DNA of 64,000 nt from Escherichia phage vB-Eco-KMB39, in sequence record OR539219.1; one strand, 5' to 3'. The position numbers and the translations under genes are program-made. The notes below the pieces were generated by a model. The model ran no database searches. It was not told the DNA's origin and worked only from the letters and a program-made list of their open reading frames with translations. This document shows, piece by piece, positions 4,535-55,056 of the stretch (positions are counted from its first letter, which is position 1; each line of letters starts with the position of its first letter).

Positions 4535-6043
4535 ATGGATATTAAAGTACATTTTCACGACTTCAGTCATGTACGCATCGATTGTGAAGAGAGCACGTTC
4601 CACGAATTAAGAGATTTCTTTTCGTTTGAGGCAGATGGATATAGGTTTAATCCTCGCTTCAGATATGGCAACTGGGATGGACGAATCCGTCTTTTAGATT
4701 ATAATCGTCTTCTTCCGTTCGGCTTAGTCGGGCAAATTAAAAAGTTCTGCGATAACTTTGGCTATAAAGCCTGGATTGACCCTCAAATTAATGAAAAAGA
4801 AGAATTATCAAGAAAAGATTTTGATGAATGGCTTTCTAAATTAGAAATCTATTCAGGAAATAAAAGAATTGAACCACACTGGTATCAAAAAGATGCAGTG
4901 TTCGAAGGATTAGTTAATCGTCGCAGAATTCTTAATCTTCCAACATCCGCAGGTAAATCTTTAATTCAAGCTTTGCTTGCACGTTATTATTTGGAAAATT
5001 ATGAAGGTAAAATTCTTATCATTGTTCCAACAACTGCTCTGACAACTCAGATGGCTGATGACTTTGTTGACTATCGTTTATTCAGTCATGCAATGATAAA
5101 GAAAATCGGCGGCGGAGCATCAAAAGATGATAAATATAAAAATGATGCACCAGTCGTCGTTGGTACATGGCAAACTGTAGTTAAACAACCGAAAGAATGG
5201 TTCTCACAGTTTGGAATGATGATGAATGATGAATGTCATCTTGCTACAGGAAAAAGTATTTCATCTATCATATCAGGATTAAATAACTGTATGTTTAAAT
5301 TTGGTCTATCAGGTTCATTACGTGATGGCAAAGCCAATATCATGCAGTATGTTGGAATGTTTGGTGAAATATTTAAACCAGTAACGACTTCTAAATTAAT
5401 GGAAGATGGACAAGTAACTGAGCTAAAAATTAATAGTATTTTTCTTCGCTATCCCGATGAGTTCACTACTAAATTAAAGGGAAAAACTTACCAAGAAGAA
5501 ATAAAAATTATTACTGGACTCAGTAAAAGAAATAAATGGATTGCTAAATTAGCTATTAAACTTGCACAAAAAGATGAAAACGCTTTTGTCATGTTTAAGC
5601 ATGTATCACATGGTAAAGCTATTTTCGATTTAATTAAAAATGAATACGATAAAGTTTATTACGTATCAGGGGAAGTTGATACCGAAACACGCAACGTAAT
5701 GAAAACCCTAGCTGAAAACGGTAAAGGAATAATTATAGTAGCTAGTTATGGTGTATTTTCTACTGGTATTTCAGTTAAAAATCTGCATCACGTTGTTTTA
5801 GCGCACGGTGTTAAATCAAAAATCATTGTATTACAAACAATCGGTCGTGTATTACGTAAGCATGGTTCTAAGACAATAGCAACAGTCTGGGATCTTATAG
5901 ATGACGCGGGCGTAGTTTCTAAATCAAAAACATCTTCTAAAAAATACTCGCATTTAAACTATCTTTTAAAACATGGACTTGATCGTATTCAGCGTTATGC
6001 TGATGAAAAGTTTAATTATGTGATGAAAGAGGTTAAACTTTGA
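4535..6043 (+). CDS. uvsW: UvsW RNA-DNA and DNA helicase
   Basis: 502 aa; SF2 helicase motifs (Walker A region PTSAGKS, DECH box MMMNDECHLA); sequence matches recalled T4 UvsW. Confidence 0.92.
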   Translation: MDIKVHFHDFSHVRIDCEESTFHELRDFFSFEADGYRFNPRFRYGNWDGRIRLLDYNRLLPFGLVGQIKKFCDNFGYKAWIDPQINEKEELSRKDFDEWLSKLEIYSGNKRIEPHWYQKDAVFEGLVNRRRILNLPTSAGKSLIQALLARYYLENYEGKILIIVPTTALTTQMADDFVDYRLFSHAMIKKIGGGASKDDKYKNDAPVVVGTWQTVVKQPKEWFSQFGMMMNDECHLATGKSISSIISGLNNCMFKFGLSGSLRDGKANIMQYVGMFGEIFKPVTTSKLMEDGQVTELKINSIFLRYPDEFTTKLKGKTYQEEIKIITGLSKRNKWIAKLAIKLAQKDENAFVMFKHVSHGKAIFDLIKNEYDKVYYVSGEVDTETRNVMKTLAENGKGIIIVASYGVFSTGISVKNLHHVVLAHGVKSKIIVLQTIGRVLRKHGSKTIATVWDLIDDAGVVSKSKTSSKKYSHLNYLLKHGLDRIQRYADEKFNYVMKEVKL

Positions 6044-50308: not shown

Positions 50309-50965
50309 ATGGCTGATTTAAAAGTAGGTTCAACAACCGGAGGCTCTGTCATTTGGCATCAAGGAAATTTTCCATTGAATCCAGCCGGTGACGATGTACT
50401 CTATAAATCATTTAAAATATATTCAGAATATAATAAACCACAAGCTGCTGATAACGATTTCGTTTCTAAAGCTAATGGCGGTACTTATTTAAATAAAGTA
50501 ATTTTTAATAAAGGAATGACTGTTCCTGGCGCAGGGTCAGGTGATAATGGTATTTTTGCTGGTCCTGGTGATAGTGCCACGTATGATACTACAAATATGG
50601 ATATTGTTTCATGGTATGGTATTGGTTTTAAATCATCACAAGGAACAGCAGGTAGAACTGTAGTAATTAACACACGAAATGGAGATATTAGCTCAAAGGG
50701 CGTAATTGAAGCATCACAAATCCGTGTAACTTCGTTATCACCAGTAAATAATTATGACCTTACGCGGAAAGATTATGTTGATGGAGCAATAAATATTGTT
50801 ACAGCAAACGCAAACTCTAGGGTATTACGCTCTGGAGACACTATGACAGGAAATTTAACTGCGCCAAACCTTTTTTCACAGAATCCTGCATCTCAACCCT
50901 CGCATGTTCCACGATTTGACCAAATTGTTATTAAGGATTCTGTTCAAGATTTCGGCTATTATTAA
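50309..50965 (+). CDS. 36: Long tail fibre distal connector gp36
   Basis: 218 aa; size and synteny as T4 gp36. Confidence 0.88.
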   Translation: MADLKVGSTTGGSVIWHQGNFPLNPAGDDVLYKSFKIYSEYNKPQAADNDFVSKANGGTYLNKVIFNKGMTVPGAGSGDNGIFAGPGDSATYDTTNMDIVSWYGIGFKSSQGTAGRTVVINTRNGDISSKGVIEASQIRVTSLSPVNNYDLTRKDYVDGAINIVTANANSRVLRSGDTMTGNLTAPNLFSQNPASQPSHVPRFDQIVIKDSVQDFGYY

Positions 50966-50973
50966 GAGGACTT

Positions 50974-53900
50974 ATGGCTACTTTAAAACAAATACAATTT
51001 AAAAGAAGCAAAACTGCAGGAGCACGTCCTGCCGCTTCAGTATTAGCCGAAGGTGAATTGGCTATAAACTTAAAAGACCGTGTACTTTTTACTAAAGATG
51101 ACCAAGGAAATATTATTGATCTGGGTTTTGCTAAAGGCGGTAGTATTGACGGGAATGTTATTCATACAGGCAATTATAACCAAACTGGCGATTATACTTT
51201 AAATGGCGTCTTCACTCAGACTGGTAATTTTAATTTAACTGGTATTGCTCGAGTAACTCGCGATATTATTGCCGCTGGGCAGATTATGACTGAAGGCGGA
51301 GAACTTATTACAAAAAGTTCAGGTACAGCGCATGTTCGTTTTTTCGATAACAATAGTCGCGAACGCGGAATCATTTATGCCCCGGCTAATGATGGTTTAA
51401 CTACACAAGTACTTAATATCAGGGTTCAAGACTACGCCGCTGGTAGCGAAAGCACTTATGCATTTTCAGGCAGTGGACTATTTACTTCACCTGAAGTATC
51501 AGCATGGAAATCTATTTCGTCTCCACAAATTCTGACCAACAAAGTCATTACTAATAATAAATCTACGGGTGATTATGACATCTATTCGATGGCAGACAAT
51601 GTTCCATTGTCTGAAAGCACTACTGCTATTAATCATCTTCGTGTCATGCGTAATGCCGTTGGTTCTGGTATTTTCCATGAAGTTAAAGATAATGATGGAA
51701 TAACTTGGTATGCAGGTGATGGACTTGACACCTATCTTTGGTCATTTACTTGGAGCGGCGGAATTAAATCAAGTCACTCAATTTCTATTGGTTTAACACC
51801 TGGTAATAAAGATTATTCAATATTAGGACCATCTAGTATTGCTTTAGGAGATAATGATACTGGATTTAAATGGCATCAAGATGGATATTATTTTAGCGTT
51901 AATAATGGAACAAAAACGTTTTTATTTAGTCCTAGCGAAACAACTAGCCTAAGAAAATTTGTAGCTGGATATTCTACTAACGGAACCGATTTAACTACTC
52001 CTCCAACTGAAAATTATGCTCTTGCTACTGTCGTGACATACCACGATAATAACGCGTTTGGAGATGGTCAGACTCTTTTAGGATATTATCAAGGCGGTAA
52101 CTATCATCACTATTTCCGCGGCAAGGGTACTACAAACATTAATACTCACGGCGGTTTGTTAGTTACTCCTGGTAATATTGACGTTATTGGTGGTTCTGTT
52201 AATATCGATGGTAGAAATAATGCTTCTACACTGATGTTTAGAGGTAACACAACTGGTAGCAGTTCAGTTGATAATATGACAATTTCCGTGTGGGGTAATA
52301 CCTTTACTAATCCTAGCGAAGGCACCCGTAAAAATGTCATGGAAATTTCTGACGCAACTAGTTGGATGAGCTATATTCAACGAACAACTGCAGGTAAAGT
52401 CGAATCGGTTATAAATGGCACCCAGATTGTTAATGAAAACTTGACAGTAGTAAAAAATGCTACATTTGACGGTACAATCAGCGCAGCCGGTGAAATCGCG
52501 ACAAATGCTGTAAATGGTCTTCGCATTTGGAACGCAGATTATGGAGCTATTTTTAGACGTTCAGAAGGAAGTCTTCATATTATTCCAACTGCTTACGGTG
52601 AAGGTAAATATGGCGATATCGGTCCACTTCGCCCGTTTAGTATGGCTTTAGATACTGGTAAAGTTACTATTCCAGATTTACAATCAAGTTACAATACGTT
52701 CGCTGCTAACGGTTATATTAAATTTGTTGGTCATGGAGCGGGTGCCGGCGGTTATGACATTCAATATGCTCAAGCGGCTCCTATTTTCCAGGAAATTGAT
52801 GATGATGCTGTAAGCAAATATTATCCTATTGTTAAACAGAAGTTTTTAAATGGTAAAGCCGTTTGGTCTTTAGGTACTGAAATTAATTCGGGTACATTCG
52901 TTATTCATCATCTGAAAGAAGATGGTTCACAAGGCCATACGTCTCGTTTTAATCAAGACGGTACTGTTAACTTCCCAGATAACGTTTCTGTCGGCGGCGG
53001 TGAAGCTACTATTGCTCGTAATGGTAACATCTGGTCTGATATCTGGAAAACGTTTACTTCAGCAGGCGACGTAACTAATATTCACGATGCTATTGCTACT
53101 CGCGTTGCCAAAGAAGGCGACACGATGACCGGCACTCTTTGGATTAATAAAGATGCTGCTGGAATAGTTCTTAATCCTCCTTTGACCAGTGATTCATCAT
53201 TTATTCGTTCTGATACGGCCGGGGCCAATAATTGGTATATTGGTAAAGGCGGTGCCGACAATGGTCTAGGTTTTTACAGTTACATTACACAAGGCGGTGT
53301 ATACATAACAAATAACGGTGAAATATCGCTTTCTCCTCAAGGACAAGGAACATTTAATTTTAATAGAGACCGCCTTTATATAAATGCTAGTCAATGGGTT
53401 GCACATAAATCTGGCGCTTGGGGCGACCAATGGGGCTTAGAAGCTCCTGTATTTGTGGATTTTGGTAGCGTTGGTAATGATAGTTATTATCCTATTATCA
53501 AAGGAAAATCTGGTATTACTAACGAAGGATACGTATCCGGTGTAGATTTTGGTATGCGCCGCATCACTAATACATGGGCCCAAGGTATTATTCGTGTAGG
53601 TAACCAGGAAAATGGCTCCGACCCGCAAGCTATCTATGAATTCCACTCTAATGGTACTTTTTATGCTCCGAGCTTACTTAAGAGCAACAGAGTATCGGCT
53701 GGTGGTGGAGACCCTGTATGGACTGGACCATGTATTGTTATCGGCGATAACGACACCGGATTGGTATGGGAAGCAGACGGTATTTTCAACGCATATGCAA
53801 ACGGTCAAGGTGTGTTTAGTTTCCGCGCTGGTCTTGCTCAGACATTTGGCAACGTGTCCCTTAACGTTAACGCCGGTATGTACGTTCGTGATAACATTGA

Positions 53901-54243
53901 TGTTAACGACGTTTATATTCGTTCTGATATTCGTTGTAAGTCAGAAATTAAGCTTATTAAGAACGCTCAAGAGAAATCTAAACTCTTAGGTGGTTATACT
54001 TATCTGCTTAAAAACTCTGTCACAGACGAAGTTAAACCGTCTGCAGGTTTAATTGCTCAGGAAGTTCAAGAAGTATTGCCTGAACTTGTTTCTGAAGATA
54101 AAGAGACCGGCTTACTTCGTTTAAACTATAACGGTATTATCGGTTTAAATACTGCTACTATCAACGAGCATACTGACGAAATCAAGGAATTGAAATCTGA
54201 AATTGCTGAATTGAAAGCATTAATTAAATCATTGATAAAATAA
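50974..54243 (+). CDS. 37: Long tail fibre distal subunit gp37 with C-terminal intramolecular-chaperone-like domain
   Basis: 1089 aa; conserved N-terminus MATLKQIQFKRSKTAGARPAAS...; C-terminal ~106 aa begins SDIRCKSEIK... and ends in coiled coil. Confidence 0.9.
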   Translation: MATLKQIQFKRSKTAGARPAASVLAEGELAINLKDRVLFTKDDQGNIIDLGFAKGGSIDGNVIHTGNYNQTGDYTLNGVFTQTGNFNLTGIARVTRDIIAAGQIMTEGGELITKSSGTAHVRFFDNNSRERGIIYAPANDGLTTQVLNIRVQDYAAGSESTYAFSGSGLFTSPEVSAWKSISSPQILTNKVITNNKSTGDYDIYSMADNVPLSESTTAINHLRVMRNAVGSGIFHEVKDNDGITWYAGDGLDTYLWSFTWSGGIKSSHSISIGLTPGNKDYSILGPSSIALGDNDTGFKWHQDGYYFSVNNGTKTFLFSPSETTSLRKFVAGYSTNGTDLTTPPTENYALATVVTYHDNNAFGDGQTLLGYYQGGNYHHYFRGKGTTNINTHGGLLVTPGNIDVIGGSVNIDGRNNASTLMFRGNTTGSSSVDNMTISVWGNTFTNPSEGTRKNVMEISDATSWMSYIQRTTAGKVESVINGTQIVNENLTVVKNATFDGTISAAGEIATNAVNGLRIWNADYGAIFRRSEGSLHIIPTAYGEGKYGDIGPLRPFSMALDTGKVTIPDLQSSYNTFAANGYIKFVGHGAGAGGYDIQYAQAAPIFQEIDDDAVSKYYPIVKQKFLNGKAVWSLGTEINSGTFVIHHLKEDGSQGHTSRFNQDGTVNFPDNVSVGGGEATIARNGNIWSDIWKTFTSAGDVTNIHDAIATRVAKEGDTMTGTLWINKDAAGIVLNPPLTSDSSFIRSDTAGANNWYIGKGGADNGLGFYSYITQGGVYITNNGEISLSPQGQGTFNFNRDRLYINASQWVAHKSGAWGDQWGLEAPVFVDFGSVGNDSYYPIIKGKSGITNEGYVSGVDFGMRRITNTWAQGIIRVGNQENGSDPQAIYEFHSNGTFYAPSLLKSNRVSAGGGDPVWTGPCIVIGDNDTGLVWEADGIFNAYANGQGVFSFRAGLAQTFGNVSLNVNAGMYVRDNIDVNDVYIRSDIRCKSEIKLIKNAQEKSKLLGGYTYLLKNSVTDEVKPSAGLIAQEVQEVLPELVSEDKETGLLRLNYNGIIGLNTATINEHTDEIKELKSEIAELKALIKSLIK

Positions 54244-54246
54244 TAA

Positions 54247-55056
<810 letters not shown>

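Follow-up and report, generated by a model that had tools for sequence, protein, structure and literature searches.

The endosialidase of phage K1F is the prototype of the Peptidase_S74 family in MEROPS and Pfam. In the fibre protein pb1 of phage T5 the Thr1263-Ser1264 bond is cut, with the S1264A substitution stopping cleavage and Lys1269 activating the serine (PMC4690869). The T5 site is complete only when a correctly folded triple beta-helix supplies an arginine from a neighbouring chain, such that cleavage reports correct trimer folding, and while the chaperone remains uncleaved the T5 tip is masked (PMC4690869). The S587A and K592A forms of MyRF are uncleaved, these residues having been equated with S911 and K916 of endoNF (PMC8326128). 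The chaperone domain structures of both T5 (PMC4690869) and MyRF (PMC8326128) contain a trimeric coiled coil.

Closer to the protein described here, the gp37 of Salmonella phage S16 reportedly removes its own final 113 residues by autocleavage at DLNVS^SDRRIKK (^ marking the scissile bond), exposing the gp38 docking face, the reported order of events being trimerisation, self-cleavage and then acceptance of gp38 (PMC7917993). A gp37(3)-gp38(1) complex is known from the S16 crystal structure (PMC6851490) and the role of the N-terminal tryptophans of S16 gp38 has been described (PMC6851490, PMC7917993). In the fPS Tequatroviruses the equivalent gp37 context is DVYIR^SDGRLKI (PMC7917993), while the gp37 proteins of T2 and T6 have been reported to be processed at the C-terminus and then capped by gp38 (Drexler, Riede and Henning, 1986, cited in PMC3157838).

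In the window, meaning the whole 64-kb stretch of DNA analysed here (1-64000), the ORF listing contains an ORF of 1089 aa plus stop at 50974..54243 (+), residues 1-60 of which are nearly identical to T4 gp37. The gene order at this position is 34-35-36-37-38-t-asiA, the same as in T4, PP01 and T2, with the matching gene labelled long tail fibre distal subunit in related Tequatrovirus records and the region showing 91-95% DNA identity to many Tequatrovirus genomes. Sequence and synteny identify this ORF as the gene 37 of a T-even phage, encoding the precursor of gp37, the distal subunit of the long tail fibre. The lengths of 1089 aa here and 1026 aa in T4 given by an earlier note on this DNA were both confirmed. 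The T4 protein can be aligned with this gp37 over only roughly the first 650-750 residues, and because the two are dissimilar over roughly the last 440, the 63-residue excess is, judged from this alignment, not simply that of T4 gp37 plus a module, the whole distal third being different. No tRNA genes (ARAGORN) and no Rfam families at the gathering threshold were detected across the window.

The segment of interest, 53923-54243 (+), translates to SDIRCKSEIKLIKNAQEKSKLLGGYTYLLKNSVTDEVKPSAGLIAQEVQEVLPELVSEDKETGLLRLNYNGIIGLNTATINEHTDEIKELKSEIAELKALIKSLIK followed by a stop codon, which is the final 106 residues of gp37 and matches exactly the peptide (SDIRCKSEIKLIKNAQEKSKLLGGYTYLLKN...IKELKSEIAELKALIKSLIK, 106 residues plus stop) previously reported for these positions. 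The domain that it encodes ends at the gp37 stop codon, placing it at the extreme C-terminus of the protein, and is preceded by about 65 residues homologous to the beta-helical tip of S16 gp37. A 125-aa ORF in an alternative frame (53612-53989, +) overlaps the last part of the gp37 shaft together with the first part of the chaperone; its product would be hydrophobic and of low complexity and the ORF is presumably spurious.

The earlier note had suggested that this C-terminus resembles intramolecular chaperone domains and had proposed a comparison with the Peptidase_S74 profile. Searched alone, the last 106 residues of gp37 matched Pfam PF13884 (Peptidase_S74, "Chaperone of endosialidase") at 51.5 bits with an E-value of 1.3e-13, a significant similarity well above the curated gathering score of 22 bits. 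The match aligns gp37 residues 984-1039 (53923..54090), a core that includes the conserved GGYTY and AGLIAQEVQEVLPE segments, with profile positions 1-57, such that Ser984 occupies position 1. As positive controls with the same library, the C-termini of T2 gp37, T6 gp37 and T5 pb1 matched PF13884 from a serine at position 1, with Ser1264 of T5 pb1 taking the same position as Ser984. For the K1F endosialidase the match opens at profile position 5 (fragment residue 15), and Ser911 falls at position 1 by extrapolation. In the literature Ser1264 and Ser911 are the catalytic serines at the scissile bonds of these two proteins (PMC4690869, PMC8326128). T4 gp37, the negative control, gave no Peptidase_S74 match in this Pfam library and returned Collar and Phage_fibre repeats instead.

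Searches against the PDB identified S16 gp37 (6f45_A) as the closest solved chain by phmmer, with an E-value of 2.1e-31 when the preceding tip was included and 2.2e-22 for the module alone. This single-sequence search reached only S16 and a weak MyRF match, while a profile built from homologues recovered 7dc3, the MyRF ICA domain (2.7e-16), 8jov, a tail fibre (2e-12), and 3gud, the neck-appendage chaperone of GA-1 (2.5e-5). As deposited, the GA-1 chain 3gud_A has the equivalent SDERHK as its first residues, which puts its start at the cleaved end. Neither the profile search against the PDB nor the fold search described below retrieved the T5 structure 4UW8.

Conservation of the motif was assessed with the last 116 residues of gp37 as the query in a full-library phmmer search, which returned 14,898 cluster representatives at E<=1e-3. 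A word-indexed homologue search had given just 12 proteins, too few for conservation statistics, and the full-library search was used in its place. Among the best 150 of the 14,898 representatives the match ended at or near the C-terminus in nearly all, the proteins ranging from about 100 to about 2500 residues. The conservation alignment comprised 160 of the best-scoring homologues, spanning 33-86% identity, and its frequencies are hence biased towards the query. In this alignment Asp985 and Lys989 are matched by Asp and Lys in every one of 159 homologues, Ser984 by Ser in 157 and Arg987 by Arg in 131 of the 159. Further downstream the glycine of the G-Y-T-Y segment is kept in 158 of 160 homologues, the Gly and Ala of the G-L-I-A-Q segment are invariant with the Gln present in 159 of 161, and the proline of the L-P-E segment is invariant among the aligned homologues. 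In the S-D-x-R-x-K start followed by an aromatic segment, on which the resemblance was originally drawn, the Ser, Asp and Lys and the GYTY glycine are nearly invariant across 159-161 homologues.

In gp37 itself the motif reads S-D-I-R-C-K (53923..53940), with Ser984 (53923-53925) and Lys989 (53938-53940) forming the predicted Ser-Lys dyad, and every motif residue needed for cleavage, namely S984, D985, R987 and K989, is intact. The equivalent dyads are S911/K916 in K1F, S1264/K1269 in T5 and S587/K592 in MyRF, the K1F pair having been confirmed from the literature (PMC8326128) and from the K1F sequence. Profile alignments were relied on for these assignments, as in a plain MAFFT alignment large insertions shifted the Ser/Lys motifs of T5 and K1F by a few columns; a narrower profile built from the homologues aligned K1F over the GVIAQQ segment only. 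Cys988 (53935-53937), between Arg987 and Lys989, is matched by Cys in only 2 of 159 homologues, the residue there usually being Val, Leu, Ser or Ala; nothing suggests that it impairs function.

The predicted structure is in keeping with the profile evidence. The last 146 residues of gp37 were modelled with AlphaFold2 (mean pLDDT 89.6) as a single chain, where the functional unit is an intertwined trimer; in the model a small alpha/beta body is followed by a terminal helix of 37 residues. Foldseek against the PDB matched the model to the MyRF ICA domain (7dc3) with a TM-score of 0.65-0.70 and a probability of 1.00, and to the K1F "Intramolecular Chaperone" (3gw6) with a probability of 0.99 in the four top-ranked chains out of six; the PDB yielded no further significant match. 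The chaperone fold of the gp37 C-terminal domain is predicted on the basis of this model. The S16 entry 6f45 is absent from the matches listed by Foldseek though its deposited sequence includes the module, which is consistent with the module being missing from the crystal model.

DSSP assigned helix to residues 109-145 of the 146-aa query, corresponding to gp37 residues 1052-1088 (54127..54237). The heptad-like coiled coil previously described at this end of gp37 is real and longer than was noted, with five Ile in succession at the "a" positions of the 37-residue predicted helix (1056, 1063, 1070, 1077 and 1084) and Y, N, H, L, L and L at the "d" positions, the last three being Leu. This Ile/Leu register is in line with the trimeric coiled coils of the T5 and MyRF chaperone domains, and the terminal helices of gp37 presumably assemble into such a coil, nucleating trimerisation.

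Such features could in principle arise by chance from a short motif and a generic coiled coil. The motif is indeed short, and coiled coils do give spurious weak Pfam matches (E 0.003-0.08), as illustrated here by those to CDC37_C, TMF_TATA_bd and DivIC, which fell below their thresholds and were rejected as helix-composition noise. The Peptidase_S74 match is of a different order, with its E-value of 1.3e-13 lying above the gathering score, 14,898 homologous clusters sharing the similarity, and the profile-to-PDB and fold matches falling on solved chaperone domains. Because the Pfam, homologue, PDB-profile and fold statistics all point the same way, a chance resemblance has a probability close to nil and can be set aside. 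The domain belongs to the Peptidase_S74 family, and residues 984-1089 (53923..54240, 106 aa) are very probably a C-terminal intramolecular chaperone and autoprotease domain, the chaperone role being taken from homologues. The likeness to intramolecular chaperones first noted from the sequence is accordingly upheld by Pfam, homologue conservation and fold matches alike.

The predicted scissile bond lies between Arg983 and Ser984, with the P1 and P1' codons at 53920..53925, in the context DVYIR^SDIRCKS. Ser984 is position 1 of PF13884 and aligns with the serine of the S16 cleavage site (VS^SD) and with that of T5 (T1263^S1264), while the (D/N)VYIR^SD.R.K context is identical in T2, T6, the fPS phages and this gp37. 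The phmmer match to 6f45_A (E 2.1e-31) extends over the gp37 tip upstream of the module, the last 65 or so residues before R983 being homologous to the gp38-docking tip of S16. Mature gp37 would on this basis comprise residues 1-983 (50974..53922), ending ...NDVYIR983. An upstream "sensor" arginine is used by K1F (Arg897) and T5 (Arg1250); in gp37 both Arg972 and Arg983, the latter at P1, are candidates for this role.

A trimerisation module of the Peptidase_S74 type might instead stay uncleaved on the mature fibre, with gp38 attaching elsewhere, and the rarity of Cys at position 988 beside the catalytic Lys would lend something to such a reading. It is nevertheless very unlikely, given that S984, D985, R987 and K989 are all intact, that autocleavage exposing the gp38 docking face has been reported for S16, the nearest homologue with a solved structure (PMC7917993), that T2 and T6 gp37 are reported to be cleaved (PMC3157838) and that in T5 an uncleaved chaperone masks the tip (PMC4690869).

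Cleavage at Arg983-Ser984 by a separate phage or host protease in place of the protein's own Ser-Lys dyad is highly improbable. In its title the T2 study that PMC3157838 cites speaks only of "proteolytic processing", with no protease named, and an Arg at P1 could be cut by a trypsin-like enzyme. Against this, recombinant homologues self-cleave in E. coli in the absence of phage factors (PMC4690869, PMC8326128), with cleavage abolished by S1264A in T5 pb1 and by S587A or K592A in MyRF (PMC4690869, PMC8326128). The P1 residue also varies widely among the homologues (R, T, Y, S, F and others), Arg, as found in this gp37, being the commonest (78 of 153), and such variation does not fit a sequence-specific protease. 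Autocleavage of gp37 at R983^S984 is the preferred reading, and from the homologues we infer that in this phage it would be followed by release of the domain and docking of gp38.

The gene directly 3' of gene 37 (54274..55056, +) encodes a gp38 adhesin of 260 aa that matches Pfam GP38 (PF05268, E 3.9e-72) and Gp38_N (PF21721, E 1.7e-20). The Gp38_N attachment domain occupies residues 1-42 (54274-54399) and carries W9, W22 and W37, all three of which are conserved in the gp38 of T2 and T6. This T2-type gp38 is unrelated to T4 gp38, which is an assembly factor. The proposal in the earlier note of a T2-type distal fibre that accepts a gp38 adhesin is therefore sustained by a downstream gene for T2-type gp38 with its Gp38_N domain and by the lack of the module in T4 gp37. 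By analogy with S16, a gp37(3)-gp38(1) complex would be expected in the virion of this phage.

Other features of gp38 were apparent. The W9/W22/W37 pattern at its N-terminus fits the published view that C-terminal subtypes of gp37 and N-terminal subtypes of gp38 pair in lock-and-key fashion (PMC3157838). At about residues 143-162 (54700-54760) there are eight consecutive glycines (GGGGGGGG) together with further glycine-rich motifs, as is usual for a polyglycine-II "sandwich" such as that of S16 gp38. An antisense proline-rich ORF of 60 aa (54585-54767) is the mirror image of this glycine run and is almost certainly no gene.

Taken together with the homologous systems, the locus suggests the following sequence of events. 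Three gp37 chains would associate through residues 984-1089, their long C-terminal helices coming together as a trimeric coiled coil, and the chaperone's beta elements would pack on the end of the fibre shaft, fixing the register in which the upstream triple beta-helix folds. When correct folding of the trimer has been reached, Lys989 would activate Ser984 and the Arg983-Ser984 bond would be cut in each chain, after which the 106-residue chaperone trimer would dissociate. The flat tip so exposed (...DVYIR983) would be capped by one gp38 through its tryptophan-bearing N-terminal helical bundle. This scheme in its entirety, in which gp37 trimerises, folds its shaft, cuts itself at Arg983^Ser984, sheds the chaperone and accepts one gp38, is judged highly likely to hold for this phage. 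A second role for the released 106-residue chaperone trimer in the infected cell, or a redox- or timing-sensitive cleavage brought about by Cys988, would make the module more than a disposable folding aid, yet nothing in the data points there and either would be most surprising.

The fibre tip differs in its affinities from the DNA around it. Residues 884-1089 of gp37 (53623-54243, the last 206) have 98.5% protein identity to Escherichia virus TH15, listed under Gaprivervirus and the nearest relative, whereas identity drops to about 32% against T2 and to about 52% against several O157 Tequatroviruses. The surrounding 25 kb (39001-64000) is about 95% identical to Tequatrovirus genomes, while across 50843-54602 the nucleotide identity to the TH15 locus averages only about 80%. 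On these identities the tip and chaperone module make up a mosaic cassette that looks to have been exchanged.

An E. coli assembly (NCBI GCA_050537045.1) includes a related phage contig of 166 kb (ABZCBI010000006.1), in which the sole record for gene 37 is a 121-aa "tail fiber domain-containing protein" at 5001-5366, equivalent to about 53878-54243 here and starting at the equivalent of Met969. A frameshift or pseudogene was considered for that contig and rejected, as an intact ORF of 1087 aa is present, and the short record looks like an artefact of gene calling or annotation.

A self-cleaving chaperone on T2-type gp37 with the same cleavage context is already known, being both published and in Pfam. 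As such the feature is an ordinary and well-understood element of T2-type long tail fibres, drawn from a very large domain family, and brings no new biology. For annotation, mature gp37 here should probably be taken as ending at Arg983, the cut being what would create the docking face for gp38. Likewise, in engineering, fibre-tip swaps or recombinant gp37-gp38 would be expected to need residues 984-1089 for folding, with their loss from the product anticipated.

Of the known systems, S16 gp37 is the nearest in design, being the same protein with the module at the same position, the S-D-x-R-x-K start, the GGYTY, AGLIAQEV, LP.LV and LNYNGI segments and a heptad tail, and in S16 as here a gp38 adhesin with N-terminal tryptophans follows gp37. 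The S16 construct (PDB 6F45; Dunne et al., 2018) is 47% identical over the last 116 residues; it differs in a module of 113 rather than 106 residues and in having Ser at P1 (DLNVS^S) where this gp37 has Arg (DVYIR^S). T2 and T6 and the phages fPS-2, -65 and -90 are similar in belonging to the genus Tequatrovirus, with a PF13884 match in T2 and T6 and the order 37-38-t common to these two, although identity between this module and its T2 and T6 counterparts is only about 32-37%, and T2 gp37 stops about 12 residues earlier, the terminal helix being longer here. In related annotation, the record of Klebsiella phage Roth20 labels the equivalent ORF "chaperone of endosialidase".

The more distant relatives share the architecture and differ in its use. 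In the K1F endosialidase (PDB 3GW6) a Ser-x4-Lys dyad likewise opens a C-terminal domain that follows a triple beta-helix and matches PF13884, but that domain is of 154 residues with long insertions and about 11% identity, and the protein is a tailspike enzyme with no adhesin capping the cleaved end. T5 pb1, of the L-shaped tail fibre (PDB 4UW8; PMC4690869), resembles this gp37 in its SDARLK motif at the extreme C-terminus of a fibre, its trimeric coiled-coil core and the unmasking of its tip on cleavage, whereas the T5 domain has 133 residues with Thr at P1 and the unmasked tip binds the receptor directly, there being no separate adhesin. The eukaryotic MyRF ICA domain (PDB 7DC3; PMC8326128) is the best structural match to the model and has both the Ser-Lys dyad and the C-terminal trimeric coiled coil, but it is internal to its protein, with a stalk that has no part in activation, and serves to release a transcription factor from the ER membrane.
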